DNA of 20,901 nt from Chlamydiota bacterium (lineage in GTDB: Bacteria > Chlamydiota > Chlamydiia > Chlamydiales > SM23-39). The stretch lies in assembly GCA_048498835.1 (NCBI GenBank), contig JBEHXF010000036.1, positions 1 through 20,901 of the forward strand. Reading direction: 5' to 3'. The notes beneath the pieces are model-generated. The model saw only the letters and a program-made list of their open reading frames with translations. It was not told the DNA's origin and ran no database searches. The position numbers were made by a program, and so were the translations under genes. This document shows, piece after piece, positions 410 through 18,922 of this stretch; the stretch's first letter is position 1, and each line of letters begins with the position of its first letter.

Positions 410-1951
410 TTATTTGTGTTGGATGAGGTGGTCGCCCACACGGAGAGAATTGGCTATGATGGTCAGAGCGGGGTTGACGGCTCCAGCAGAGGGGAAAAAG
501 CTCCCATCGACAACGTAGAGATTCTCGACATCGTGGGTGCGGCAGTTGAGATCGAGGACAGAAGTGCGGGGATCGGTGCCGAAGCGAGCTGTGCCCACTT
601 GGTGCGCAACGCCGGCGACCGGAATTTCTTTCTGCAGGTAGCCAGTTGTGTCGTGGTGATGAACGTTGTATCCTGTGACGCGGAGAATTTGCTTGAGCTT
701 TTTGTAGAGGCGTCTGTGCGCTTCTTGATTGCGTTGTGTACAAATGAGGTGAAGTCGATCTTGATCGTCTATTAGGACGCGATTATTGGGGTCTGGAAGA
801 TCCTCAGAAGTGATCCACCAGCCGATGGCATGTCTGGCCATCCAATTGAGGAAAAAGTTTGGGACAAAGAAAGGGGCGTCGCCGCGCAGCATGGCACCTT
901 TCACTTTGCCGAGGAGCTGGATGTGTCCGAGAGGATATTCAGAGTCAGGCGCATCGAAATAAAAGTCATTGATACCGATCGTTTTTTGAAAGATGACCGG
1001 ATTTCTATGTGTTGAAAGGGCGACAATCGCTGAATTGAGGTGACACATGTAATTGCGACCCACTTGGTCTGAACTATTGGCGAGACCGTTTGGGTGCTGA
1101 GGCGATTTGGAGCGAAGTAATAGCGCTGCTGAATTGATCGCTCCACAAGAGACGATGATCCGATTGGCTTTTATGTGGACAATTTTTCCTTCGTGTTCTA
1201 CGACAACTTCTGTTGCTCGTTTGCCTGAGGAGTCGGTGAGAATGCGAAGCGCTTTTGCGTGGGTGAGTAGGTGGACGTTGCTGTATTGCTTAAGAGTGGG
1301 AGCGATGCAGATGCGATGGGCGTCCGATTTGGCATTGACGAGGCATGGATAGCCATCGCAAGTATCGCAGCGAATGCAGAGACTATTTTCTGGATGCTTT
1401 TCATTGAGTCGGATGCCGAGCGGAAGGTGAAAGGGTTTGAGGCCTTCAGCTCTGAGCTGTCCGGCAATTTGCGCCATGTGAGGTTCGTGGCTAACCGGAG
1501 GAAAGGGATACGGTTTTTCTTCGGGCGGCTCGGTGGGATCTTCTCCGCGCTGGCCGTGGACTTCATAGAGCTCTTCGGCCTGCTGATAATACGGTTTAAA
1601 GTCAGAATATTTCAGGGGCCAGGCAGGTGAAAGACCGCCGTAATGCTGGATTTCGCCGAAATCGCGTTCTCGAAGACGGAGAAGCGCGGCTCCATAGAAT
1701 TTAGTGTTGCCGCCTACATAATAATGGGTGCCTGGTTCAAAAGGCTGTCCTTTTTTATCGATCCAGGTTTCGCCGCAATTGTAGCGCCCTGCAGCAAAGA
1801 CGGAGGTGGGATCCCAATTTTCTTTTTCTCGCGGAAGAAAACCACCTCGCTCGATGATGAGAATTTGTTCGCGGGTGGATGCTAGTTTATGAGCAAGCGT
1901 TCCGCCACCGGCGCCAGAACCGATGATGATCGTGTCGAATTGTCTATGCAT
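410..1951 (-). CDS. GMC family FAD-dependent oxidoreductase (choline/gluconate-2-dehydrogenase-like flavoprotein)
   Basis: N-terminal GSGAGG FAD motif, VGGNTKFYGA, CIRCDTCDGYPC, GAINSAALLLRS, HQVGTARFG and DGSFFPSAGAVNP. ATG at 1951 (MHRQFD) overlaps the upstream gene's stop (1944-1946) and is preferred to the ORF-track start at 1978. Confidence 0.9.
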   Translation of the reverse strand: MHRQFDTIIIGSGAGGGTLAHKLASTREQILIIERGGFLPREKENWDPTSVFAAGRYNCGETWIDKKGQPFEPGTHYYVGGNTKFYGAALLRLRERDFGEIQHYGGLSPAWPLKYSDFKPYYQQAEELYEVHGQRGEDPTEPPEEKPYPFPPVSHEPHMAQIAGQLRAEGLKPFHLPLGIRLNEKHPENSLCIRCDTCDGYPCLVNAKSDAHRICIAPTLKQYSNVHLLTHAKALRILTDSSGKRATEVVVEHEGKIVHIKANRIIVSCGAINSAALLLRSKSPQHPNGLANSSDQVGRNYMCHLNSAIVALSTHRNPVIFQKTIGINDFYFDAPDSEYPLGHIQLLGKVKGAMLRGDAPFFVPNFFLNWMARHAIGWWITSEDLPDPNNRVLIDDQDRLHLICTQRNQEAHRRLYKKLKQILRVTGYNVHHHDTTGYLQKEIPVAGVAHQVGTARFGTDPRTSVLDLNCRTHDVENLYVVDGSFFPSAGAVNPALTIIANSLRVGDHLIQHK

Positions 1952-3050
1952 GCCAGACCAACACAGCTTTGATTTCATCAGCAGGCTTTTTTCCTAAAAC
2001 ATGGGCAAAATCTTCATGAGCAATTTTTGCGGTGATGAATTGTTCGATCACCCCTTTCCATTCATTTTGGGCAGCTTCTAGATCGACAACTGCTTGTTTA
2101 AAATGCTCTTTGCTGGCGTTGACGCTGCCAAAAATCACCTGATTTTTTAGGACGATTTGCCGCATCATCGCACTTCCATTAACGTTAAGGGGGTGATCGC
2201 CGCCCGGAACGCCTGTCATCGCATAAATCCCATCATTGCCCAGTTTTTCAATGAGATCGAAATCGAGTTTTGCCACTCCAGCTGCTTCCACGATCATGTG
2301 GATTTGTCCGTAGGTCGTCTCGATCTGTTTCCAGCCTTTATCGCTGCTCTGAATGTATTTTCCTCCCATCGCTTCTAAAATTTTAGGACGCGGTGTGTGG
2401 GGATCGACAATATCGAGTCCAATGACGCGAGCCCCTCTGAGGCGGAGCACCATTGCAGCAAGGAGGCCGATGGGGCCGAGGCCTGCAACGAGAACCGTTT
2501 TATTTTGCAGCCATTCTTTTGCATTTGATTCAAAGGGGAGTCTTGCCGCTTGGAGTCGGCAGGCATGATCGATCGCCTTTTCTACCACGGTTGTGGGTTC
2601 TGTAAGAACGCCGATGAGTCGCAGAGCGGGCGGAACTTTGATGCAGTATTTTTCTTCATCGACGATGTACTCTGCCTGGTAGCCATGCAGCCCTTTAATG
2701 CCTCTTTCGGTGTAATCACCGGTTCGGCACATGTCGGGATAGCCTTTTTTGCACGGATCGCATTGATTGCAACCTCGTCGCACCATGATGACGACAAGAT
2801 CTTTTGGCTTGAGCGTTTTTACCTCAGCGCCCACTTCCATCACCTCGGCGAGCACTTCATGGCCGATGATGAGGATTTTATCGCCCGGCGGCGCGTCTGC
2901 CCGTCCACCGTCAGCCTCTTCTCGATCCGTTCCGCAGATCCCGACTAATAGCGTTCGCACCTTCACTTGTGTCGGCGATTGAATGTTCGGCTCTGGCCAA
3001 TCGACGATGGTTATTTTTGTTGTTCCGGGAGTGAGTGCTAGCGCTTTCAT
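1944..3050 (-). CDS. Zn-dependent medium-chain dehydrogenase, glucose 1-dehydrogenase-like
   Basis: GICGTD and GHE catalytic Zn ligands, structural Zn cluster RRGCNQCDPC..C, YTERGIKGLHG, GLGPIG Rossmann motif and GSVNA near the C-terminus, all typical of the glucose-DH subfamily of MDRs. Confidence 0.85.
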   Translation of the reverse strand: MKALALTPGTTKITIVDWPEPNIQSPTQVKVRTLLVGICGTDREEADGGRADAPPGDKILIIGHEVLAEVMEVGAEVKTLKPKDLVVIMVRRGCNQCDPCKKGYPDMCRTGDYTERGIKGLHGYQAEYIVDEEKYCIKVPPALRLIGVLTEPTTVVEKAIDHACRLQAARLPFESNAKEWLQNKTVLVAGLGPIGLLAAMVLRLRGARVIGLDIVDPHTPRPKILEAMGGKYIQSSDKGWKQIETTYGQIHMIVEAAGVAKLDFDLIEKLGNDGIYAMTGVPGGDHPLNVNGSAMMRQIVLKNQVIFGSVNASKEHFKQAVVDLEAAQNEWKGVIEQFITAKIAHEDFAHVLGKKPADEIKAVLVWHA

Positions 3051-3175: not shown

Positions 3176-3274
3176 AATCACAGAGTGCACAGAGATGAAA
3201 GAGAGTCACACAGAGAAAAAATTCTCAATTTCTGCTCGGTGAAGCTTCTTTTTCTCTCTGTGAACTCTGTGATT
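3176..3274. repeat. Short inverted-repeat element (CACAGAG family, MITE-like), copy 1
   Basis: 20-bp terminal inverted repeat AATCACAGAGTGCACAGAGA / TCTCTGTGAACTCTGTGATT (1 mismatch). Its left ~55 bp is near-identical to 18783-18840. Confidence 0.85.
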
Positions 3275-3344: not shown

Positions 3345-3881
3345 ATGGTTCTATCAACTGATACCACAAAAGTTTGGGCAAAGGTTGTCGCGAAATGTTG
3401 GCAAGATGAGACATTTAAACGACAGGTGATAACAAACCCAAATCGGGCGTTAGAAGAACAGGGATTAAAGATTCCAACAGGCGTTCGATACAAGGTTATT
3501 GAAGAGAAAGGACAAGAGCGCCACACCTATATCGCTTTGCCTAAAAAGCCTCGATCCGCCGATTTGAATCGCCATTTGAAAGAACTGAATGTGGACTCTG
3601 GTTCTTCATTTGGGAAAATCTGGTCCAAAGTGATCGCCAAAAGTTGGCAGGAAGAGGGATTTAGAGCTAGGGTTATCGCTGAACCCGCGAAGGTACTCGC
3701 TGAGGCTGGATATACATTTGATCCAGCGACAAAATTTAAAGTGATTGAAGAAGAGAGCATCGAAGAGCATGCTATTCATCTCTCTTTGCCTGCGAAACCG
3801 CAGAAGAGTGATTTACGAGAAGAAGAATTAAGGCATCTATCGGGAGCCCTTTGTGCATCTTGCGGCGGTTGTGCCTGTTAA
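3345..3881 (+). CDS. RiPP precursor with two tandem NHLP (nitrile hydratase-like leader peptide) domains and a C-terminal Cys-rich core
   Basis: Two ~82-aa repeats (KVVAKCWQDETFKRQVITNP..L.E.G..KVIEE..LPKKP and KVIAKSWQEEGFRARVIAEP..L.E.G..KVIEE..LPAKP), then the leader end DLREEELRHLSG(A) and core LCASCGGCAC. Lies directly upstream of a YcaO cyclodehydratase. Confidence 0.9.
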   Translation: MVLSTDTTKVWAKVVAKCWQDETFKRQVITNPNRALEEQGLKIPTGVRYKVIEEKGQERHTYIALPKKPRSADLNRHLKELNVDSGSSFGKIWSKVIAKSWQEEGFRARVIAEPAKVLAEAGYTFDPATKFKVIEEESIEEHAIHLSLPAKPQKSDLREEELRHLSGALCASCGGCAC

Positions 3882-6039
3882 CTTGATCCGATTTAAGTCT
3901 TGTTATCACGTCGAAGACTTTGTCGATGAAGTGTTTCTTTTTTCCGAGAAGCAGACGCATCGTTTGCAGGGGAAACTATATGGTTTAGTTTCCCCCTTAT
4001 TAAAACAGGCAACGCTTTCGGAACAGGAGATCGTTGATCGATTAGCCGATCAAGCATTGCCTGAAGAGATTCACTATGCTTTACAAAGATTGGAAGCAGG
4101 CGGGTATCTTGAGCGGGTAGAAGAAGATCTCCCCCCTGGTTTTACCTCTTTTTGTCATTTGCTAGGAGTAGAGCCGGCACTTGCCCGAAAACGGCTACAG
4201 GCTTGCCATCTTTCTGTCCTAGGAATTGGCTCTGTAAACCTTCAACCTATTCTTTCCGCTCTTGAAGCTATAGGTCTTACTTTATCTTCAGAAAAAGGCG
4301 ACTTAACTTTGGTGGTAACAGATGATTATAGCCACCCTCAAATAGAAGCGCACCATCAGCAGCTCAAAGATAATCCGTGGATTTTGCTCAAGCCCAAAGG
4401 ATGTGAAATTTGGCTAGGACCTCTTTTTCAACCGGGGCAAGCTGGGTGTTGGGTCTGCCTCGATCATCACATCAAGCGGAATGATTTAGAACGCTCCTAT
4501 GTAAGAAAGAAAGGTGGGGCCCCTTTTTCTACTGCTATCTCCTCTTTTTCTGCGACCGAAGGGTTAGCCGCTCATTTTGCTGCGAGCGAGCTACTTAAAT
4601 GGATTGTGAAACCAGAAGCTTCCCTTCTAAATAAAAACCTCCTTTCTTTTGATGCTCTGCAAACCAAATTCCAAGAGCATCGCTTGCTTCCGCTCAGTAG
4701 CTGTAAACACTGTGGGAAAGAGAGCATGAGATCATTCCATCCTCCGGTTTTCAGCGGAAAGAAAAGGGGAATAAGTGATGGGGGATATCGAAGCCGCTCT
4801 GCGGAACAAACGTTGAAAAGCCTTTCGCCCTACATCAGCCCGATTTTAGGGGTTGTGAGTTCTCTACACGATTCGGCTTTAGACTCTTCTCTTCATGTGT
4901 ATTATGCAGGCAATAATTTTGCCGTGGCCAATTCTTTGGAAGGATTGGAGCCCGACGCTCTCCGCAGTCGCTGTAGCGGAAAAGGTCAGACAGAGGCGCA
5001 GGCTAAGGCGAGTTGTCTTTGCGAAGGGATTGAGCGGTATTCTGGAATCTTTCAGGGAGATGAGCCGAGAATCCGGGGAAGTTACCGAGAACTGAAGGGC
5101 AATGCGATTCAACCGAATGACATACAGCTCTTCAGCTCTCGGCAATTTAAAATCCGCGAAGAGTGGAATAGGGTTCATAAGAGATCTCATCGAGTTCCCA
5201 GGCTTTTTTCTGAATGCGAAGAAATAGAATGGTCGCCCGTCTGGTCTCTCACTGGCAAAGTTGTGAAATATCTTCCCACAGCTTTGTGTTACTATTCTTA
5301 TCCCGATCCCTCGCCACCTTGCTATGCCGATTCCAATGGAAATGCCGCGGGCAATTGTTTAGAAGAGGCGATCTTGCAAGGATTTTATGAGCTTGTCGAG
5401 AGAGATAGCGTAGCCATTTGGTGGTACAATAGAATCTTGAGAAATCGTGTCGATGTTCGAAGTTTTGCCGATCCCTATTTAGATCTGTTACTTGAAGAGT
5501 ATGCGGCGATTGGGAGAGACGTTTGGGTACTGGATATCACGAGCGATTTGCCCATTCCTACTTTCGTCGCACTTTCAAAAAGCGCTAAAGGGGAGATTCT
5601 CTTTGGTTTTGGGGCTCATCTCAATGCTTCGATCGCCCTTTCTCGCGCACTGACTGAAATGAATCAGTTCCTTCCTCTTCTAACAAAATTAAAACTCTCT
5701 GAAAACGATTGGCTTAAAATGGCAACCATAGAAAATCAGCCCTACCTTCGAGGCCATGAGAGGGAGCCAATGAAGGTGAAAGAGGACTATCCCAAGGTTG
5801 ATTGCGACGATCTTTTGAGATGCCAATCACTCGTTGAAGAGCGGGGAATGGAGATGTTGATCCTAGATCAAAGTCGCGATCCGATCGATTTGAAAGTAGT
5901 CAAGGTCATAGTTCCGGGACTCAGACATTTTTGGCCCCGTTTTGCACCCGGTCGCCTCTATGATGTGCCGGTAGCGATGGGATGGCTTAAAAAGCCGCTC
6001 CAAGAATCTGAACTCAACCCTATACCCATGTTTATTTAG
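3871..6039 (+). CDS. Fused TOMM/LAP cyclodehydratase (RRE + E1-like C domain + YcaO D domain)
   Basis: E1-like GPLFQPGQAGCWVC and CKHC; YcaO motifs SGKG..EAQAKASCLCEGIERY and DSNGNAAGNCLEEAILQGFYELVERD; Pro-rich C-terminus LNPIPMFI. Start is uncertain (TTG 3853 frame; GTG 3871 or TTG 3883 more plausible). Confidence 0.93.
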   Translation: MPVNLIRFKSCYHVEDFVDEVFLFSEKQTHRLQGKLYGLVSPLLKQATLSEQEIVDRLADQALPEEIHYALQRLEAGGYLERVEEDLPPGFTSFCHLLGVEPALARKRLQACHLSVLGIGSVNLQPILSALEAIGLTLSSEKGDLTLVVTDDYSHPQIEAHHQQLKDNPWILLKPKGCEIWLGPLFQPGQAGCWVCLDHHIKRNDLERSYVRKKGGAPFSTAISSFSATEGLAAHFAASELLKWIVKPEASLLNKNLLSFDALQTKFQEHRLLPLSSCKHCGKESMRSFHPPVFSGKKRGISDGGYRSRSAEQTLKSLSPYISPILGVVSSLHDSALDSSLHVYYAGNNFAVANSLEGLEPDALRSRCSGKGQTEAQAKASCLCEGIERYSGIFQGDEPRIRGSYRELKGNAIQPNDIQLFSSRQFKIREEWNRVHKRSHRVPRLFSECEEIEWSPVWSLTGKVVKYLPTALCYYSYPDPSPPCYADSNGNAAGNCLEEAILQGFYELVERDSVAIWWYNRILRNRVDVRSFADPYLDLLLEEYAAIGRDVWVLDITSDLPIPTFVALSKSAKGEILFGFGAHLNASIALSRALTEMNQFLPLLTKLKLSENDWLKMATIENQPYLRGHEREPMKVKEDYPKVDCDDLLRCQSLVEERGMEMLILDQSRDPIDLKVVKVIVPGLRHFWPRFAPGRLYDVPVAMGWLKKPLQESELNPIPMFI

Positions 6040-6041
6040 CT

Positions 6042-7256
6042 GTGCTTTTACAACTCAAACCAAATGCGCCTTTCGAAGCTTTAACCGATCATTGGTTTCA
6101 TAAGCTGATTGAGGTGGGTGAAGATCGGCTCATCTCGTTTTTTTATGGCTTAGAAAAATTAAAGACCTCTGGGTGGATCGATTACACCATTCCAGCTTAT
6201 TTAACGTTCATTCCCTTTTCTCCGTTTGAGAAAAAGCCACTGAACGAGACGAGCGCTTATCGCCTCTCTCGCTTTTGTTATACCCGTTTAGAGGGAGATA
6301 AAATCGTCTTAGAGTCTCCTCTTTTTTCTGGAAGGATTGAACTCATCGGGCCGATGGGAATATCTCTTTATTTCCGTCTTGCAAAACCTTGCTCCCTACT
6401 CGAATTAGTGGCCGAATTTCCAATGGCAAAAAGCTACATGGAATTATTGGTGTGGGGCCAGATGTTGGTGGAAGAAGAGGAGCTTTCTCAATGGGCTTTT
6501 CACGATCTTCTTTTCCACAGCAAGACTCGACTGGAAAGAGCGCCACCCGATTTTATGAAGCTCTATCCTTTTCAACAAGCTCCTCTACCTGTCGTTAAAT
6601 CGATCTCTAATCCGATCGAGATCATCTCTCTATTTAGACCTGATATCGAAGCATTAAAACGGAGTGACGTTTCCTTTACACAAGTTTTAGAGACCAGATC
6701 GTCTCAAAGAAAACAGGGCAAGACTCCTCTCACCATGGAGCAACTGGGAGAGTTTCTGTTTCGGACGGCGCGAATTCAAGCGCTCAAAGTCAATCAGTGT
6801 GAGCTTTCGGAGCGCCCTTATCCAAATGCAGGTGCGCTCTATGAACTGGAAATTTATCCTCTTATTCATAGTTGCGAGGGACTTTCTGCTGGCCTTTATC
6901 ATTACGATCCTCTCAACCATCGTTTGCTAAAACTAAGAGAGGGTGACTGGAGAACAGAGAGTTTGTTGAAACAAGCCCAGCTTTCAACTCAAAGCGACTC
7001 CTTTTCTCAAGTCCTTTTGATCATCGCTGCCCGTTTTCAGCGGGTGAGTTGGAAGTATCCAGTCTATTCCTATTCTCTCACGTTGAAAAATGTGGGCGTC
7101 TTGCTTCAGACGATGTACCTTGTCGCTACAGCAATGGGGCTCGCTCCTTGTGCGATTGGAAGGGGAGATGGTCGTCTGTTTTCTGAGCTAATCGGATCAA
7201 AAGATGGGGAAGAAACGAGTGTGGGAGAATTTATGTTAGGCTCGAGTGGCGAATGA
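6042..7256 (+). CDS. SagB/ThcOx-family FMN-dependent azoline dehydrogenase (nitroreductase fold) with N-terminal extension
   Basis: W.FHDLLFHS..R, VLETRSSQR, RPYPNAGALYELEIY, GLYHYDPLNHRL, RFQRVSWKY (Lys-Tyr pair) and LLQTMYLVATAMGLAPCAIG. GTG start 2 nt after the YcaO stop. Confidence 0.92.
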   Translation: MLLQLKPNAPFEALTDHWFHKLIEVGEDRLISFFYGLEKLKTSGWIDYTIPAYLTFIPFSPFEKKPLNETSAYRLSRFCYTRLEGDKIVLESPLFSGRIELIGPMGISLYFRLAKPCSLLELVAEFPMAKSYMELLVWGQMLVEEEELSQWAFHDLLFHSKTRLERAPPDFMKLYPFQQAPLPVVKSISNPIEIISLFRPDIEALKRSDVSFTQVLETRSSQRKQGKTPLTMEQLGEFLFRTARIQALKVNQCELSERPYPNAGALYELEIYPLIHSCEGLSAGLYHYDPLNHRLLKLREGDWRTESLLKQAQLSTQSDSFSQVLLIIAARFQRVSWKYPVYSYSLTLKNVGVLLQTMYLVATAMGLAPCAIGRGDGRLFSELIGSKDGEETSVGEFMLGSSGE

Positions 7257-8080
7257 GAAATTTAGGCATTGGCGTTGGATTGAGATCTGCGCATTACCGA
7301 GAAATTTTAGCGGAAAAGCCGCCGGTGGATTGGTTTGAGATCATCAGTGAAGATTACTTGAGTTTAGAGGGACAAAATTTTGATTTTCTTGAGAAAATAT
7401 TAGATCTTTATCCAGTGGTGCAACATGGAGTTTCTCTCCATATCGGGAGCGCTGATCCCCTCGATTTTGACTATTTAAGAAGATTGAAAAAATTAAGCCG
7501 AGTTACCAAAACGCCTTGGATTTCAGATCATCTCTCGTGGGGCAAAGTCGCAGGGGCTCATTACCACGATCTTCTTCCTCTGCCGTTTACAAAAGAGGTT
7601 GTTGCCTACGTCGCTGAGCGAGCGAGGATTGTGCAGGATTTTTTGGAACTTCCCTTTGCTCTTGAAAATGTCTCCTCGTACACCTCCTTTAAAGTGGATG
7701 AAATGGCCGAGTGGGAGTTTTATGGAGCTATTGTGGAGCGGGCAAACATTCATATGATGCTGGATGTCAATAACTTATATGTTTCATCGAAAAATCACGA
7801 CTTTTCCCCACAAGAGTACTATGAAAAGCTACCATTGGATCGAGTGATCCAGATCCATTTAGCGGGTCATAGAGACATGGGACTTTATCTTCTCGATACC
7901 CACGATGCTTTTGTCTCTGACCCTGTTTGGGAACTCTACGGTGAGATTTATCCAAAAACGAAAGGGGTATCGACGCTGTTGGAATGGGATGACCAATTTC
8001 TCAGTTTCGAGCGAACGTGGAAAGAGGCTCTGAAAGCAAAGCGATTTCAACAGCAGGTGGTGCATGAGACCGCCTCCTGA
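7253..8080 (+). CDS. DUF692 multinuclear non-heme iron-dependent oxidative enzyme (MNIO; MbnB/TglH/ChrH/BufB/HvfB family)
   Basis: GIGVGLR, WFEIISED, HGVSL, SDHLSW, LLPLP, LENVSSY, LDVNNLYV, QIHLAGH, LDTH and LLEWD motifs in order; 275 aa; ATGA overlap with the dehydrogenase stop. Confidence 0.95.
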   Translation: MRNLGIGVGLRSAHYREILAEKPPVDWFEIISEDYLSLEGQNFDFLEKILDLYPVVQHGVSLHIGSADPLDFDYLRRLKKLSRVTKTPWISDHLSWGKVAGAHYHDLLPLPFTKEVVAYVAERARIVQDFLELPFALENVSSYTSFKVDEMAEWEFYGAIVERANIHMMLDVNNLYVSSKNHDFSPQEYYEKLPLDRVIQIHLAGHRDMGLYLLDTHDAFVSDPVWELYGEIYPKTKGVSTLLEWDDQFLSFERTWKEALKAKRFQQQVVHETAS

Positions 8081-8828
8081 ACTTCTCTCATTGCAGAGCC
8101 AGTTTACGAAAGCTCTTTTAAGAGAGGACGAGACGGCGGATCTATGGCTCTGTGGAAGCCCTGGTTTGCCAGCCAAAAAGAGAATGGGGATTTATCGCGA
8201 GAGTTATCAAACGCGAATCATCCAATTTCTCTTGGCTCATTTTCCCCTTGCGTGCCGATTTTTGGGGCGAGAGCGGTTTTGCCAAGAGATTACGCTCCCA
8301 TATTTAAGCGATTGCTATTCTACCGACTGGCGCCTTGAGCAGTTTGCTTTTCATCTCGTTCTTTGGTTTGAAAAACGTGATCCCTTTCTTTTAAGTCTAT
8401 TGCAGGCTGATTTGCGTTGGCTGATGTGTTCGCTTGCAAAGCACGTGGTTTCTCCCATTCCCGATCTTTTTTCTACTCCACTCGCTTTGCAGCCTCACGC
8501 CTCTTTGATCCAGTTAGAGGGAGATCTGTTTCATCTCCGACTGGAAAGCGAGTGGAGGCCGCCTCGCGAGGGGATTTTTCAGTATCTCTTATTTAGGTCG
8601 AAAACGATGGCTGTCGTAGCGGCTCCCATCAGTGAAGTTTTTTATCACCTCCTGAATGAAAAGGGATGTTCTTGCAATGAGGCAATCACAAGATTAGAAG
8701 AGATCTATCCCTCTCTCGACTATGCTCTGCTCTATTATTCCATGGAGCGATTTAAAGACGCTTTTTTAGTGAGCACGAGTAGTGCAGCGATCCCAAAACA
8801 GATCGAGCCTACAATCAAAGAAATTTGA
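8064..8828 (+). CDS. DUF2063-type MNIO partner protein (putative precursor-recognition subunit, BufC/HvfC-like)
   Basis: L.SLQSQFTKAL..RMGIYRESY..R....L..HFP.....LG.ERF....PYL N-terminal pattern and LALQPH mid-region. Overlaps the DUF692 stop by 17 nt, the usual position for this partner. Confidence 0.82.
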   Translation: MRPPPELLSLQSQFTKALLREDETADLWLCGSPGLPAKKRMGIYRESYQTRIIQFLLAHFPLACRFLGRERFCQEITLPYLSDCYSTDWRLEQFAFHLVLWFEKRDPFLLSLLQADLRWLMCSLAKHVVSPIPDLFSTPLALQPHASLIQLEGDLFHLRLESEWRPPREGIFQYLLFRSKTMAVVAAPISEVFYHLLNEKGCSCNEAITRLEEIYPSLDYALLYYSMERFKDAFLVSTSSAAIPKQIEPTIKEI

Positions 8829-9952
8829 TTGGTCAATCCAAGCCACGGAGAGGTGATGACAATCGCAATCAAAAAGCCCAATGCTTGCAGCGATTGCATG
8901 ATTCCCATGACTTCTCCCTGGAGTTCTTTTTTCACGCTATTGGACGCAAAAGCGAGTGCTGTTGAGATAAATAGGGCGTAGAAAAATTCTTGAAAGGGGA
9001 TGACATACCAATTCAGTTTAGGGTTTTGAGTAAAGAGCAGTAAAAGAAGGGTTGTAGCGATGGCGAGTGAGCAAATTCCAAAGATCCATCCTACATGAAA
9101 GCGCCCGAGGAAGGGCTGAATCAAGATGCTGCTCGATAGGACAAACCAAATCGCCGCATAAGAATAAAAATCACCTACTTGATTAGGGTGAAGTCCGTAA
9201 CGTTCCAGCCAGTTCACCGGGATGAATTGCCAATAAGCCGACCACCCGATCAAAACGCTTAAAAAGATGATGAAAAAAATAAGCAGGTGAGCCCATTTAA
9301 ACAGAAGATCGATGCTTCGAAACATCGACGTGGGATTAAATTCCGTCTTCATTTCTACAGGGACTGGATCTTTAAAAAAGAGGGCGAGAAGAGCCATGTT
9401 GATGAGAACGAGGCAAAGCGCTAAGAGAAAAGGTTCGATGTATTTGCCATTTGCCGAGAGTTTTCCGCCAATAACGGGCCCGAGAGCAGCTCCGAGGCCG
9501 GCGGCTGTTGTGATCCAAGCGAAATTTCTCGCCTTTTTTTCAGGGGGGCTAATATCGCCGATTACAGCGTTTGCGATCGCTGCGCCAGTTGCTCCAACAC
9601 CACCGATCAGTCGCCCAGTGAGCAGGAGAAAGGGGTGGTCGAACCAGATCCCTGCAATAGCCAATCCATGACTGAGACAAATCACCGACAAAACAATGAG
9701 GAGCATCTCTTTGCGTCCCCAAAGGTCGGAAAAAAAACCGGCAAAGGGAGCTGAGAGAAAGGCGGTTATCGGAGCTGCAGCTAACAAAATGCCGAGCCAA
9801 AGCCCCCGCTTTTCAGCAGAGGCTGAGCCTGAGAGAAATTCTACACCTTGCTGAAAGGTGATGGAGGAAAAGATCGGAAAAACAATCCCGATGCTAAAGG
9901 TTGCAGTAGCTGCAATCAGAAAGAAAATAAAGAAAGTATGTTTGTGGTGCAT
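8735..9952 (-). CDS. MFS transporter, DHA1/TetA-like efflux family
   Basis: About 12 hydrophobic segments; motif A variant GFFSDLWGRK; GRLIGGVG; antiporter motif C-like GLGAALGPVIGG; ELQGEVMG near the C-terminus. Confidence 0.9.
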   Translation of the reverse strand: MHHKHTFFIFFLIAATATFSIGIVFPIFSSITFQQGVEFLSGSASAEKRGLWLGILLAAAPITAFLSAPFAGFFSDLWGRKEMLLIVLSVICLSHGLAIAGIWFDHPFLLLTGRLIGGVGATGAAIANAVIGDISPPEKKARNFAWITTAAGLGAALGPVIGGKLSANGKYIEPFLLALCLVLINMALLALFFKDPVPVEMKTEFNPTSMFRSIDLLFKWAHLLIFFIIFLSVLIGWSAYWQFIPVNWLERYGLHPNQVGDFYSYAAIWFVLSSSILIQPFLGRFHVGWIFGICSLAIATTLLLLLFTQNPKLNWYVIPFQEFFYALFISTALAFASNSVKKELQGEVMGIMQSLQALGFLIAIVITSPWLGLTNQISLIVGSICFGIAALLVLTKKASLNRSME

Positions 9953-10273: not shown

Positions 10274-10690
10274 TCAATTCTTTAAAAATGGCTTCATCGT
10301 ATCCGCAAAGTCGGCTAACTCTAAGTTTGTCCATTCGCGAGTCAGCTCTAAGTGTCGAGTCTCTTTTTCTCCTCTGCTTTGAGCTTTTTTAAAGGCCAAA
10401 CGGTGAAGTCTCTTTAATTCGACTGTAGCTTTTTTTATCTGGTGTTTAGAAACTCCAGATGAAATGCGTTCTCGCCAATTTTGAATGATCTGCTCAATTC
10501 GATTGGTGCTTGCGTGCTTTTTTTTCAAGATTGATGCGGTGGATAGTGGATGATCTTTTGGAGTGCGAATCGGATTGCAGAAATAATAGGGGGTAGTAAC
10601 TGTAGATTCCGGCGTAGGAGGCATCTCCAGAAGTTCTGATGTTGGTGAAGAGGGAATGGAATTTCCTGAAGAGATAGATTTAACTGACAT
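10274..10690 (-). CDS. Hypothetical protein with Ser/Pro/Thr-rich N-terminus and basic helical C-terminus
   Basis: ATG preceded by AAGGTG; fills the intergenic space; starts MSVKSISSGNSIPSSPTS; no known domain recognised. Confidence 0.65.
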   Translation of the reverse strand: MSVKSISSGNSIPSSPTSELLEMPPTPESTVTTPYYFCNPIRTPKDHPLSTASILKKKHASTNRIEQIIQNWRERISSGVSKHQIKKATVELKRLHRLAFKKAQSRGEKETRHLELTREWTNLELADFADTMKPFLKN

Positions 10691-10732: not shown

Positions 10733-12808
10733 TTATTTTCGAACAAGGGAAATCCCAGCGGTGACTCGATCATCGAGATCGAGGTGGCTGTAAGAGAGGC
10801 GGAGTTTGAGAACAGAGCTGAGCCAAGTGTAAAGATCTACTTTGATCTCATTATAGGGCCTCTCTCCTGCTCGCGCAAAGCCATGGTGAGAGCGGATGTG
10901 ACATTCCCAAAAGGGAGTAGGGCGTATGAAAATATGGGCTAAAAGAGTGACTCGACGATCGGATAGAGGGGAGAGCAGGAGTTCCGATTGAGAGCGAGTT
11001 ACATCGAGGATAAAACTTTCATGATCGGCTTTGCGCCAATCGTATTGCGAGCGGTAGCGCCCCTCTAGAGCAAAAGCGGCGTTTTCATTTAGAGTCCATT
11101 GAATACGTGTATTGGAATAGTCGACAACTTGATTGCGAAAGTTCCAACAATTGCGTAAAGAGAAGTTGAGTGTTGCGATGTTCCAGTAAAGATCTAAGTA
11201 GGCGCGCGGCACGACTTGTGGAATCGTAAAATCGGCAAAAAAAGCGTTGGCATACACATCGGCCACTAAAGAGGGGCCTTGGAATTTTCTTTTCTTTGAA
11301 AAGAGAATGTTTCTCACCCCTCCTTGCAATTGTGTGATTTGGTGATAGCCGTCTTGGATTGTGAAGATATAATGGCTGTCTGGGCCGACCGTTGGTTTGC
11401 TAAGACCCGTCAATTCGAGATAAGGTTCGATCTGGTGTTGGTAGCGCAAGTAATTTCGCGATGCCCTTGCATCGAGACGTGCGCCATAGGTCAAAAGACC
11501 CATTGTTTTCACATCAGAGGAGGGGGAGTTGCCATAAAAAATGCCGATGAAGCCTAGATTGGGCGTAAAGGTAGTGGGTCCTAAGTAAAATGGGCGATAG
11601 AGCCTTTCTCTCGCCTCAATGCGAGGAGAGTGATAGCTCGATAAATTTTCAATGAGATGATCCGAGTAAACGAAGTCGAGATAAGAAGCTTTGATCACGC
11701 TGGTCGAATAGATACCCGTTCTTCCTAATTCGAGCGGATGCGTGGAGAGATAAACTGAGGGGAGGTCTTGTTTAATCGATTCGAATCCATTGACTCGCGG
11801 GCGAAATTTAAAAGAGCTAATGAGACTATTTTCTTGATGGCGGAGATAAAAGAGAGTTCGCTTAGCGGTATTCACTTCGAAATCTTCGCTTCGAAAATCT
11901 CCCGGCATTCGGACATCGCTATATTTATCCCAGCTCAAGGTCGTGCACGTCTTGCCGCTTTCGCTCTCCATGTTGAAAGCGCCTTGTAACCTATATCGAC
12001 GCATTTTATCGGGCGCTGTTTCTAACCGATCTGTGGCTAAATAGCTCCTAGTGACAAAACTCGTTTTGTAATCGCTCGGAAGATATTCGGTTTCAAAGGC
12101 GCCGCCCCATCCCGTTCGCCAGCGATACTCGACTCTTCCGTACATCGCAAAGTCTTTCCAAGAGTAAAACTGATAGCGAATCATCGCTCTTGGCCCCTGT
12201 CCTTTATCCCAGTTCACGCTATAGCGGAAGATCGGCTCTTTAAATTTCCTCAAATTTACCTTAAAAGAGGGGAGCCACATCGCAGGAATTTGAAAGATGC
12301 GAAAGCGAACTCGATTTGCTTCAACCAAGTCTCCTTTTTTGACATTGACCCGATAGGCGTGGATGTCCCAGGTGCTTTCGGCATTTTCGCAGGTCGTGAT
12401 AAAGGCATTGGTGACTTTGTAATTTCCGTCGGGTTGAAGTTCAATCTCGTCGCCGCCGACGTACCAAATTGAGGAGAAGGTTTTTCCCTCATAAATCACA
12501 CCCGATCTTGTTTCGAAATCGTATTCGAGTTTTCGTCCGACATAAATCCTTCCCTTATATTGGATGAGGAGATCTCCTTCCGCATCAATTTTGTGGACGC
12601 CCTCTTTTCTTATATACTCGATCTTGCGGGCTTGAATGCGGATGTCTTGATTGCGGATGATTCCGCCCTGTGTCGTATACAATACGCCATTTTTATACGT
12701 TGGATTTCTCAGATCGACCATCATCTCTGGCGTTGGCATGGGAGTGCAGACAGGCTTTAATTCTGCAGCCAGGAGCGAGAGTGGGAGTAGGCAAAGTAGA
12801 AATCGCAT
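10733..12808 (-). CDS. lptD: LptD/OstA-like outer-membrane LPS-assembly protein (chlamydial type)
   Basis: Signal-peptide-like start; OstA-like region with AFITTCE....W; aromatic-rich beta-strand C-terminal half. Adjacent to HEAT-repeat and maf genes, as in the Chlamydia CT349-CT351 block. Confidence 0.7.
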   Translation of the reverse strand: MRFLLCLLPLSLLAAELKPVCTPMPTPEMMVDLRNPTYKNGVLYTTQGGIIRNQDIRIQARKIEYIRKEGVHKIDAEGDLLIQYKGRIYVGRKLEYDFETRSGVIYEGKTFSSIWYVGGDEIELQPDGNYKVTNAFITTCENAESTWDIHAYRVNVKKGDLVEANRVRFRIFQIPAMWLPSFKVNLRKFKEPIFRYSVNWDKGQGPRAMIRYQFYSWKDFAMYGRVEYRWRTGWGGAFETEYLPSDYKTSFVTRSYLATDRLETAPDKMRRYRLQGAFNMESESGKTCTTLSWDKYSDVRMPGDFRSEDFEVNTAKRTLFYLRHQENSLISSFKFRPRVNGFESIKQDLPSVYLSTHPLELGRTGIYSTSVIKASYLDFVYSDHLIENLSSYHSPRIEARERLYRPFYLGPTTFTPNLGFIGIFYGNSPSSDVKTMGLLTYGARLDARASRNYLRYQHQIEPYLELTGLSKPTVGPDSHYIFTIQDGYHQITQLQGGVRNILFSKKRKFQGPSLVADVYANAFFADFTIPQVVPRAYLDLYWNIATLNFSLRNCWNFRNQVVDYSNTRIQWTLNENAAFALEGRYRSQYDWRKADHESFILDVTRSQSELLLSPLSDRRVTLLAHIFIRPTPFWECHIRSHHGFARAGERPYNEIKVDLYTWLSSVLKLRLSYSHLDLDDRVTAGISLVRK

Positions 12809-12861: not shown

Positions 12862-13217
12862 TTCACCACAGAGGAGACAAAGAAGAAAAGAGAAATAACA
12901 AGGATCCGCACGAAACGCGCGGGCAGGATCGCCGCAAAGCGGCGACAGGATAAAAATTCACCACAGAGATAGACAACCACAGAGGCGGGGAGACCCCGCA
13001 CCCCAAAGAGAAGTAGTTCCTTTTGCTGCGCAAAAACAAGGAGGCTCTGAGTGGTGCGGAGTGCATCCCTCCACTATCCTGTCGCCGTTTCGGCGATCCT
13101 GCCCGGCGCTTCGCCGGATCTTTGTTCCTTCTCTTTTTTTGGGGTGCGGGGCTTCCCCGCCTCTGTGGTGGTCTATCTCTGTGGTGAAATTCTCTTCTTT
13201 GTGTCCTCTGTGATGAA
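12862..13217. repeat. 356-bp composite palindromic element with terminal inverted repeats
   Basis: TIR TTCACCACAGAGGAGACAAAGAAGA vs reverse complement of the end, TTCATCACAGAGGACACAAAGAAGA (2 mismatches in 25). Internal inverted modules ~12902-12952/13075-13120 and ~12955-13005/13138-13190. Shares sequence with 1-370. Confidence 0.88.
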
Positions 13218-15539: not shown

Positions 15540-16034
15540 ATGTCTACCCCACCTATTTCTGCACCCGCGCCACTACCGCCACCCGTTCCACAACCTGCAG
15601 CGCCTCCTGCTCCTGGCTATTTTGAAACGGCAGCCAAGGCAGTTTGGGCTTACGTTAGATCTATTTTTGAGGCGATTGCCAAGTTTTTTGGTTGCGCGAG
15701 CGAACCTGTAGAAAAACCTGAAAAGGCGATCTTGGCCAGGCTAAATGAGGGTCTGTATTCAGGTCCAAGCCTTCTCTTTCTCTTCAAACAATACTTTCAA
15801 GAAGAAGAGCAGGTTGTGGTCTATCGATTTGAGGGGCAACAGCTCAATCAACGAGAACCATTGCAAAACGAGCCGCGTGGGTGGTTTAGCTCAGCTCCTG
15901 CTGAAAAGACATTGCAACAACAGCTTGAAGAAACTGTTCAAAGGGGAGAACACGCCGTCTTCAATGATCCAAAAATTTTAATCCCTTATCTTTCTGATCG
16001 ACTCAGCCAATTATTAATGAAAGGAACGGCATGA
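15540..16034 (+). CDS. Hypothetical protein with proline-rich N-terminus
   Basis: AGGAG upstream; starts MSTPPISAPAPLPPPVPQPAAPP followed by an amphipathic helix; ATGA overlap with the next ORF. Confidence 0.7.
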   Translation: MSTPPISAPAPLPPPVPQPAAPPAPGYFETAAKAVWAYVRSIFEAIAKFFGCASEPVEKPEKAILARLNEGLYSGPSLLFLFKQYFQEEEQVVVYRFEGQQLNQREPLQNEPRGWFSSAPAEKTLQQQLEETVQRGEHAVFNDPKILIPYLSDRLSQLLMKGTA

Positions 16035-16645
16035 ATCGAGTTCCAAATTTATTTCCACCATCTATACAGGTCCCGAATTTTGCATTTCCACCCAATGGAT
16101 CACCTCCTCTAGTTCAAAGAGTTGAATCTGTACGAGATGGTTTATTTCCTAGCTTTGCATATGGAGTACCTCTTCAATTAGATCGATCTCCCGAATTAGA
16201 TCGATCTAAACTGAGAAATCTCGAGTATCTCTCCTCCCATCCATCACATCGCCCTGAGGATCAAAATTTTTCTGCTCTATTTGAACTTTATTCACAGGCA
16301 GTGATGGAAAATCCAACTTTACTTGCACTGAGAGGAGATGAGCTGTCCAGAAGAAATGAAAATATTCCAGCTATCCTCAATTATGATTTAGCTTTAAAAT
16401 TGGATAGGAATTGCCTAAGAGCTCTCATGGGGAAAGCAGTTGCTTTGCTCTTATTAAACGACAAGTTCGAAGATTTGCTGGAGGCTCAAAAGCTAATGAA
16501 TTCGTATGAAGTCATTGCAGTGGAATATCGATGCCAGGGAAGTGCTGCGGTACGAGAAATTAATCAATTAATTGAGCAAAAAATAATGGAAAGAATTCAG
16601 GCTCATACAGGTGTGAACTCGCAGAGCGAAATGAGTATACCGTGA
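16031..16645 (+). CDS. Hypothetical protein with a TPR-like region
   Basis: LALRGDELSRRNENIPAILNYDLALKLDRNCLRALMGKAVAL fits a TPR consensus; translationally coupled to the upstream ORF; its stop codon lies inside the downstream MITE. Confidence 0.65.
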   Translation: MNRVPNLFPPSIQVPNFAFPPNGSPPLVQRVESVRDGLFPSFAYGVPLQLDRSPELDRSKLRNLEYLSSHPSHRPEDQNFSALFELYSQAVMENPTLLALRGDELSRRNENIPAILNYDLALKLDRNCLRALMGKAVALLLLNDKFEDLLEAQKLMNSYEVIAVEYRCQGSAAVREINQLIEQKIMERIQAHTGVNSQSEMSIP

Positions 16646-18724: not shown

Positions 18725-18782
18725 GATTAGCGTGGAACTCTCTTTCAAATAAAGTATTTGATAGGGGGAGACTGGTTCTTTT

Positions 18783-18902
18783 AATCACAGAGTTCACAGA
18801 GACGGAAGAGAGAGTCACACAGAGAAAAAATTCTCAATTTTGATTAATTTCCCATTTCTTCTCCGTGGAGCTCCTTTTCTCTCTCTGTGTAACTCTGTGA
18901 TT
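18783..18902. repeat. Short inverted-repeat element (CACAGAG family, MITE-like), copy 2
   Basis: AATCACAGAGTTCACAGAGA ... TCTCTGTGTAACTCTGTGATT. Shares GAGAGTCACACAGAGAAAAAATTCTCAATTT with 3176-3274. Confidence 0.85.
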
Positions 18903-18922
18903 GATTTTTGCTCAGGAGGCTT

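Follow-up and report, generated by a model that had tools for sequence, protein, structure and literature searches.

Organization of the locus

The window analyzed here, by which we mean the whole stretch of 20,901 nucleotides from a Chlamydiota bacterium (contig JBEHXF010000036.1 of assembly GCA_048498835.1), carries a five-gene cluster for a ribosomally synthesized peptide that is modified after translation (RiPP). In this cluster, the enzymes of azole formation are combined with an oxidative enzyme that depends on multinuclear non-heme iron (MNIO) and its partner protein, downstream of a single precursor gene of the nitrile hydratase leader peptide (NHLP) type. The five-gene hybrid architecture is intact and rare, and was seen twice. 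The window is contig C36 of a 1.97-Mb metagenome-assembled genome (MAG), G000, which is 97% complete in 88 contigs. The Chlamydiota origin of the closest MNIO relatives and a flanking CT351-family gene indicate an environmental chlamydia as the host. The features of the cluster are as follows.

3345..3881, + strand: RiPP precursor, 178 aa, two tandem NHLP leader domains and a short core (TIGR03793)
3849..3878, + strand: predicted core LCASCGGCAC, 4 Cys and 1 Ser (alignment to chlamydial NHLPs)
3883..6039, + strand: fused RRE (RiPP recognition element)/E1-like/YcaO cyclodehydratase, LynD/MusD/TruD-like, 718 aa (PF02624, TIGR03604, TIGR03882)
6042..7256, + strand: ThcOx/SagB-type azoline oxidase, 404 aa (PF22767, PF00881, TIGR03605)
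7253..8080, + strand: MNIO (DUF692) of the bufferin-type chlamydial clade, 275 aa (PF05114)
8064..8828, + strand: DUF2063 plus RRE-like MNIO partner, PME type 1, 254 aa (PF09836)

All five open reading frames (ORFs) lie on the same strand, are uninterrupted, and are joined tightly. The precursor stops at 3881 and the YcaO gene starts with TTG at 3883 (alternatively GTG at 3871); a 2-bp gap separates the YcaO and oxidase genes (6039/6042); the oxidase and MNIO genes meet in an ATGA at 7253-7256; and the MNIO and partner genes overlap by 17 bp (8064-8080). These junctions are where an earlier examination of the DNA letters, here called the sequence-only reading, had placed them, and its assignments to the NHLP, YcaO, SagB, DUF692, and DUF2063 families were borne out by Pfam and NCBIfam profile searches. 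Misassembly was judged unlikely because of the in-frame ATGA junction and a matching locus in a second genome, G458. Promoter and terminator scans gave hits at chance level (8 versus 9.8 expected and 10 versus 9.3 expected, respectively).

Precursor and modifying enzymes

The precursor matched TIGR03793 in two stretches, at 3369-3572 and 3618-3845 (102.5 bits; cut-off, 50.9), and the two-domain structure was also evident from an internal repeat alignment. Cleavage is predicted at a G-A site of the double-Gly type, matching the GG/AG site of 35 chlamydial NHLPs. Because the aligned site is G-A, the core is predicted to have 10 residues, LCASCGGCAC, which narrows the 10 to 11 residues proposed in the sequence-only reading; the leader was found to be tandem. 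The combination of an NHLP precursor with a Cys/Ser/Thr core after a double-Gly-type site is that of the linear azole RiPPs (thiazole/oxazole-modified microcins [TOMMs] or linear azole-containing peptides [LAPs]). This is the single NHLP precursor both in the window and among the NHLPs of the whole genome. A division of labor, with one leader for each enzyme system, is unsupported, as the tandem leader of G008 accompanies YcaO/SagB only; further tandem-leader NHLPs were found in G033 and G274 as well as G008. A word-index homologue search with the window precursor alone returned only the query, whereas 5 proteins were recovered when three aligned tandem precursors served as the query. One of these, P0153, is identical to the 176-aa precursor of G458 and bears, in its source, the name nitrile hydratase alpha subunit (Simkania sp.); another, P0155, encoded on a 1-kb contig, is a third relative with the core SCGCDGCGHCV.

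The YcaO protein scored 247.2 bits against TIGR03604 (cut-off, 219.25) and also matched PF02624 and TIGR03882. Its nearest PDB structures are the cyanobactin heterocyclases MusD, LynD, and TruD (7U58, 4V1T, and 4BS9; E values down to 1e-168). The conserved motifs of the E1-like and YcaO domains are intact, the C terminus is Pro-rich, and the branch length is ordinary (0.65 versus a median of 0.57). A cyanobactin pathway is not indicated, as the precursor is an NHLP and the block holds no protease gene, with no genome-wide S8 search run. The oxidase scored 166.4 against TIGR03605 (cut-off, 78.4), which places it in the SagB/ThcOx family, and it matched CyaGox (5LQ4; E value, 3e-76) from CyaGox residue 64 onward. 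It contains a Lys-Tyr motif, which we take to be catalytic.

The MNIO matched PF05114 with 326 bits, and its best NCBIfam match was BufB (NF050167), at 298.8 bits, under the cut-off of 310. Nine residues (H58, H93, E138, D171, N174, H202, D215, H217, and E244) are invariant across 52 aligned relatives; by comparison with MbnB and TglH, we take these His, Glu, Asp, and Asn residues to be the iron ligands. The protein retains 125 of 127 conserved columns, and its 2 departures compare with a median of 4 (48 rows). It nests among chlamydial bufferin-type MNIOs with 64 to 70% identity, its closest relatives being all in Chlamydiota records, and it therefore belongs to the bufferin clade with conserved metal-ligand residues, with a BufB score under the cut-off. 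It is not of the MbnB, ChrH, or ApyH type (32, 55, and 84.5 bits, all far under the cut-offs). Among PDB entries, TglH matched with an E value of 6e-26 versus 1e-43 for 3BWW, a Haemophilus-type DUF692 protein.

Directly 3' of the MNIO gene, as in bufferin and oxazolin systems, lies the gene of the DUF2063-RRE partner (PF09836, 44.9 bits; cut-off, 27.2). This protein has diverged strongly. It carries two deletions, sits on the longest branch of 44 (2.4 to 3.1), and reaches at best 31% identity, to the partner in G458. The motif YxxQY(W/F)xR, present in 130 of 150 relatives, has been lost in both of these partners. A PDB sequence search gave no match, and a word-index homologue search returned only the query. 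Despite the divergence, AlphaFold2 predicted a confident fold (predicted local distance difference test score, 89.7), and Foldseek matched the model to TglI (8HCI) and NGO1945 (3DEE). A complex prediction of the MNIO, the partner, and the second NHLP domain with the core scored 0.00 and weighs neither way.

A second copy in another chlamydial family

All 129 genomes of the chlamydial family f7 were searched for YcaO and MNIO. G458 gave the best match to the YcaO domain (63%) and also to the MNIO (69%), and the two genes lie on the same strand, 1.4 kb apart. The order in G458 is tandem-NHLP precursor, S-adenosylmethionine (SAM) methyltransferase, YcaO, SagB, MNIO, and partner, so that the MNIO pair again follows YcaO/SagB, as the sequence-only reading of a hybrid architecture would have it. 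Identities to the window proteins are 46% for the precursor (176 aa in G458; 172 aa aligned), 52% for YcaO, 47% for SagB, 69% for the MNIO, and 31% for the partner. The locus also contains a divergent 210-aa gene and an NHLP-type C39 peptidase-ATP-binding cassette (ABC) transporter (TIGR03796, 851.1 bits, slightly under the cut-off of 853.3). The gene that interrupts the shared order is the following.

L304:12426-13352 (G458:C1): SAM methyltransferase of the hybrid cluster in G458

In the pairwise alignment, the window core and the G458 core WCYSCNGI have the motif x-C-x-S-C-x-G in common. The two MNIOs are alone in a derived loop, E-D-x-x-S-L-x-G-Q-N, at residues 34-42. In 63 of 73 MNIOs matched by the pattern FEIISE, only these two have Asp34 after it, and 57 have Asn. 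Window and G458 formed sisters in the concatenated MNIO/partner tree of 25 rows (Shimodaira-Hasegawa-like approximate likelihood ratio test [SH-aLRT] support, 93) and in the MNIO tree (FastTree support, 95). G458 also has the most rare residues in common with the window for both proteins (13 of 53 and 20 of 97 columns). No Sec-type precursor was detected across the 19-kb G458 locus, and a search of the whole G458 genome (85% complete) with a mixed precursor model also turned up none. A separate, distant MNIO in that genome has a precursor of its own. Because the window arrangement is found again in another chlamydial family, a single short Cys-rich peptide probably undergoes both chemistries. 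A gene for a JmjC-domain protein (L304:2320-3513, G458:C1) lies approximately 3.5 kb downstream of the G458 hybrid cluster.

Proposed pathway and relation to known systems

We consider it rather probable that a bufferin-type MNIO has been co-opted onto an azole RiPP and that, in a functioning pathway, it carries out Cys chemistry on the NHLP core. A linear azole module of the TOMM/proteusin type (tandem NHLP, LynD-like E1-YcaO, and ThcOx oxidase) would have gained the bufferin-type MNIO/DUF2063 pair, which would have parted from its secreted precursor and whose substrate is now most likely the NHLP core. The YcaO enzyme would bind the NHLP and, with ATP, convert Cys/Ser to azolines by cyclodehydration (-18 Da); the flavin mononucleotide (FMN)-dependent oxidase would turn azolines into azoles (-2 Da). 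The MNIO, positioned by the remodeled partner, would then oxidize the Cys left free by YcaO, with 5-thiooxazole (-4 Da per Cys, as in bufferins) as the most likely product. With x-C-x-S-C-x-G as the target, the result would be a short peptide with azole and thio-oxazole rings, plausibly a copper or metal ligand. In G458, the NHLP peptidase-ABC transporter would cut the leader and export the product. The family chemistry of the YcaO and the oxidase is established; for the MNIO step on the NHLP core, we infer it.

There is about an even chance that a copper-defense MNIO pair has exchanged a folded secreted substrate for a leader-borne core of 8 to 10 residues, on which YcaO/oxidase and MNIO would share out the Cys/Ser residues of x-C-x-S-C-x-G, yielding an undescribed mixed azole/5-thiooxazole peptide that is possibly a metallophore inside protist hosts. 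The native pairs of relatives and the co-opted pair with its defined derived loop then provide a natural before/after comparison, with which one can test how a change of substrate comes about in MNIO partners and which of the two enzymes, YcaO or MNIO, wins a given Cys. One genome encodes both candidate substrates, the NHLP core and a secreted precursor on contig C15.

Dehydrazoles are reportedly NHLP azole RiPPs. NHLP azole RiPPs such as nostatin A are reported with an NHLP precursor, a fused E1-YcaO, a SagB-type oxidase, and a Cys/Ser core, as in the window, and with YcaO forming azolines and the oxidase azoles (PMC11583998). The window differs in its tandem leader, its 10-residue core, and its chlamydial host; it has the MNIO pair in place of LanM-like or radical SAM tailoring, and no peptidase-transporter was found in the genome. 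NHLPs are reportedly engaged as folded domains, with different enzymes, an azoline-forming YcaO among them, using different surfaces (PMC12455567).

The bufferin system BufABC of Caulobacter vibrioides (10.1101/2024.03.18.585515, PMC12452194) provides the other half, a bufferin-type MNIO followed by a DUF2063-RRE partner. BufBC were reported to make 5-thiooxazoles, with a dispensable signal peptide (10.1101/2024.03.18.585515). The chlamydial MNIO relatives likewise stand behind secreted Cys-rich precursors, whereas the window operon has none, and an NHLP precursor, a cyclodehydratase, and an oxidase precede the MNIO. In addition, the window partner lacks the family motif, and the BufB score is under the cut-off. 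In the main text of Antoine et al. (PMC12452194), YcaO occurs in a reference only and NHLP is unmentioned.

Two further systems come close. Streptomyces thermodiastaticus has the std cluster, in which one precursor is modified in turn by a YcaO and by an MNIO/partner pair, and which includes a permease of the major facilitator superfamily (MFS) (PMC13174530). There, however, the YcaO, a TfuA-dependent enzyme, thioamidates Asn, and the MNIO hydroxylates homocitrulline; the available text has no match to "azol" and describes no Cys or NHLP feature (PMC13174530). The pfl/pos clusters of Pseudomonas have an NHLP-type precursor that is modified by an MNIO and a nitroreductase-family domain, but these two are fused, YcaO is absent, and Asp hydroxylation and dehydroPhe are described, with no Cys chemistry in the available text (PMC12636437). 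Full-text literature searches turned up no pathway in which an azole-forming YcaO is combined with an MNIO, with most subscription papers and supplements outside the search. The sequence-only reading knew of no characterized pathway with this combination, which in the texts searched holds for azole-forming YcaO plus MNIO but not for YcaO and MNIO on one peptide. Because of the std precedent, the novelty is narrower: what is new is to have an azole-forming YcaO and a bufferin-derived MNIO together on an NHLP, both halves being known singly. As for chlamydiae, the available text of PMC9666466 makes passing mention of RiPP-like clusters only, DUF692 clusters are left out of the analysis in PMC9426513 as far as its available text goes, and no description of chlamydial NHLP RiPP precursors was found in the literature searched.

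Evidence against the pathway and alternative explanations

An even phylum sample, with counts that include G000, gave NHLP leader matches in 52 of 400 genomes (up to 13 in one genome), YcaO matches in 35 of 401, and MNIO matches in 139 of 401. Apart from the window, no YcaO lay near an MNIO among the matches listed (4 weak MNIO matches are not among them). Each half is common in chlamydiae, but in this sample the two stand apart outside the window. Many of the chlamydial NHLP loci (L087-L155) contain YcaO/SagB and C39-type transporters.

Several observations weigh against the proposed pathway, beginning with this rarity. YcaO or SagB occurred at 0 of the 79 closest MNIO loci, and none of 73 metagenomic YcaO loci, 41 of which extended 2.5 kb or more downstream, had an MNIO. 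In a first set of chlamydial loci, an MNIO was found at 0 of 16 with fused YcaO and 0 of 6 with stand-alone YcaO; in a second set of fused-YcaO loci, it was found at 1 of 5, namely, G458. The linkage is therefore present in 1 of 21 other fused-YcaO chlamydial loci, several of which end at contig edges, and the hybrid architecture is known from two examples only. Similar Cys-rich cores are present in YcaO clusters without an MNIO, and YcaO and MNIO would compete for the same thiols. No Sec-signal Cys precursor lies directly before the MNIO, where the oxidase gene stands instead, and DUF2063-type partners are reported to correlate with Sec precursors (Antoine et al., PMC12452194). The oxidase is approximately 60 aa shorter than the 463-aa G458 copy and lacks the N-terminal helix-turn-helix domain found there (a PF18679 match under the cut-off), and neither a C39 peptidase (PF03412) nor TldD was found in the 97%-complete genome.

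Also on this side are the loci of the MNIO relatives. From 70 chlamydial MNIO loci (at least 50% identity), 3 duplicates and 6 with less than 600 bp upstream were removed. Of the remaining 61, 57 had their own secreted Cys precursor, 56 by a hidden Markov model (HMM) within 1.5 kb and 1 by eye, the HMM having been built from many of the same MNIO loci that were counted. Because the relatives' loci usually carry such a precursor, the window MNIO descends from a bufferin-type system. Three of the exceptions (L011, L019, and L283) have no adjacent precursor and directly follow genes that, judged by eye, encode an NqrA-like protein, an amino-acid symporter-like protein, and a 96-aa protein, respectively. 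Since precursor-less pairs dock behind unrelated genes, and tightly so in L011 (NqrA-like), coupling alone proves little. NHLPs near MNIOs in L013 and L135 were set aside as unrelated neighbors, those MNIOs having their own precursors. In G040, five divergent MNIO loci (L241-L245) have short secreted precursors with 2 to 3 Cys.

The fourth exception, L134 in G030, stands beside an NHLP. At L134:4622-9290 (G030:C6), one strand carries an NHLP (core ending CSSSCRGTS), a HIT-like gene, and a viperin-like radical SAM gene, and the opposite strand carries a 341-aa prenyltransferase-like gene (an Atlas lead) followed by the MNIO and partner, with no secreted precursor; this is a further NHLP/MNIO cluster that is undescribed. 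The MNIO pair is on the second-longest branch of 24, and a 44% homologue of the 341-aa gene sits in an NHLP/YcaO cluster of G436. As a looser parallel to the window, a similar co-option may have been repeated in G030 beside an NHLP and a prenyltransferase-like gene. Because an orphan secreted Cys protein is also present in that genome, G030 shares the ambiguity of G000 and is no more than a hint.

The sequence-only reading had recognized one precursor and had allowed that the pair might act on a different peptide elsewhere in the genome. The first point stands for NHLPs; for the second, a candidate exists on another contig, which encodes a secreted Cys-rich precursor.

C15:10513-10791 of G000 (locus L229), - strand: orphan secreted Cys-rich precursor, 92 aa, intact (precursor HMM)

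This gene, the only precursor-HMM match in the genome (E value, 1e-13) and one with no Pfam or NCBIfam match, lies between EamA and speD, approximately 60 bp from EamA. Its product is an intact secreted candidate substrate that rivals the NHLP core. Unlikely, in our judgment, yet the foremost of the alternatives, is that the window holds an ordinary NHLP TOMM cluster while the MNIO and partner modify the C15 precursor in trans to give a bufferin-like copper peptide. In the congener G003, the same site holds precursor, MNIO, and partner, and stand-alone bufferin precursors are reported to be common and are suggested to be modified in trans (PMC12452194). Similarly, G006 combines a precursor-less MNIO with an orphan precursor-like gene, and stand-alone secreted 4-5-Cys proteins occur in G458 and G030 as well, the former including a 4-Cys protein matched weakly by a second model.

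Homologues of the C15 precursor were found in 22 of 103 family genomes (G000 included), and 7 of the 21 relatives keep it with no MNIO found, 5 of these 7 being at least 90% complete. The survival of the C15 precursor is therefore independent of the window MNIO, which argues against the in trans explanation. The orphan arrangement of G000 recurs in G002, G008, G158, G150, G297, and G428. Relocation of the native MNIO pair from C15 to C36 was also considered and was dropped, given those six genomes and the approximately unbiased (AU) tests. In these tests, the window pair was grouped with the native copies of G001 and G003 (concatenated MNIO and partner, 24 rows), and the grouping was rejected with p-AU values of 0.005 (LG+F+G4) and 0.001 (mixture model), which speaks against identity with the native C15 pair. 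Single-gene tests failed to reject a native origin (P = 0.37 with 51 rows and P = 0.76 with 44 rows), and the window pair is on a long branch, which can attract others; the concatenated result is thus support and not proof. A clade of G000 and G030 was not rejected, but G030 fell outside the G000-G458 pair in the concatenated tree. Modification of C15 in trans also leaves aside that the gene order has been kept at approximately 50% protein divergence in another family, together with the derived MNIO loop and the remodeled partner. The partners docked in L011, L019, and L283 are on ordinary branches (0.64, 0.59, and 0.26), versus 2.4 to 3.1 here.

It is improbable that, with the hybrid real in a G458-like donor, the copy here is trimmed, decaying, or intracellular only, with no exported product. 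The missing parts would fit such a copy: three genes of the G458 locus, those for the C39-ABC transporter, the divergent 210-aa protein, and the methyltransferase, are missing here, with the absence of C39 and TldD from the genome, the shortened oxidase, and the two deletions and long branch of the partner pointing the same way. None of the 5 congeners has a YcaO. The reading frames, however, are uninterrupted and tightly joined, the MNIO departs from fewer conserved columns than the median, the partner fold is confident, and the YcaO branch is ordinary; moreover, a MAG in 88 contigs could miss a transporter. Very improbable is a co-opted MNIO that acts on the core with non-bufferin chemistry, for example, hydroxylation, C-terminal Cys excision, or backbone cleavage after azole formation: the derived loop and remodeled partner suggest altered specificity, StdDE reportedly needed a pre-modified peptide (PMC13174530), and PflD is reported to hydroxylate Asp on an NHLP precursor (PMC12636437), but the MNIO nests among bufferin-type enzymes with BufB as its best score, and the C-terminal Cys required for a TglH-type reaction is missing from the G458 core.

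Insertion and genomic surroundings

The remaining features of the window around the cluster are as follows.

1944..3050, - strand: glucose-dehydrogenase-like gene, left flank (congener comparison)
3176..3274, strand not assigned: imperfect inverted repeat upstream of the precursor, 48-nt arms, 75% complementary
8735..9952, - strand: MFS transporter, convergent (PF07690)
10733..12808, - strand: CT351-family outer-membrane protein, core chlamydial gene, right flank (NF052235 match under cut-off)

The CT351-family gene is present in all 5 congeners. In the congener G004, it is approximately 0.9 kb from the dehydrogenase gene, versus 7.7 kb in the window, so the cluster is an insertion between these two genes. 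As judged from the sequence, the five genes arrived as a block. The YcaO, for which no congener has a counterpart, groups with family f7, apart from five YcaOs of its own family (FastTree). The codon-usage percentiles of the five cluster genes are 16 to 32, versus 80 for the MFS gene and 77 to 99 for four other window genes. No insertion-flanking repeats were found.

The MFS gene, which the sequence-only reading placed after the cluster, is present and convergent, overlapping the partner gene by 94 bp (8735-8828). Its best match in the 5 congeners is at most 32%. Because the G458 locus has no MFS match and the codon usage is host-like, its membership is doubtful, and it is probably no fixed part of the cluster. 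The inverted repeat at 3176..3274 is dispersed and not cluster specific (42 blastn segments in the genome). Two families of dispersed, partly palindromic intergenic repeats, this one included, occur in the window (positions 290-380, 12870-13191, 3176-3274, and 18781-18907); they have 41 to 103 blastn segments genome-wide and give rise to spurious ORFs there.

The genes at window 410-3050, of the GMC oxidoreductase and glucose-dehydrogenase-like types, are patchy in congeners, with close dehydrogenase matches in 2 of 5. Three ORFs with no family match (138, 164, and 204 aa; window 10274-10690 and 15540-16645) have Pro/Ser-rich N termini. Elsewhere in the phylum, a two-gene module recurs at L013:6521-7185, L115, and L117, in which an NHLP with a CC-containing short core is followed by a protein of 130 to 155 aa with a DEAWH motif.

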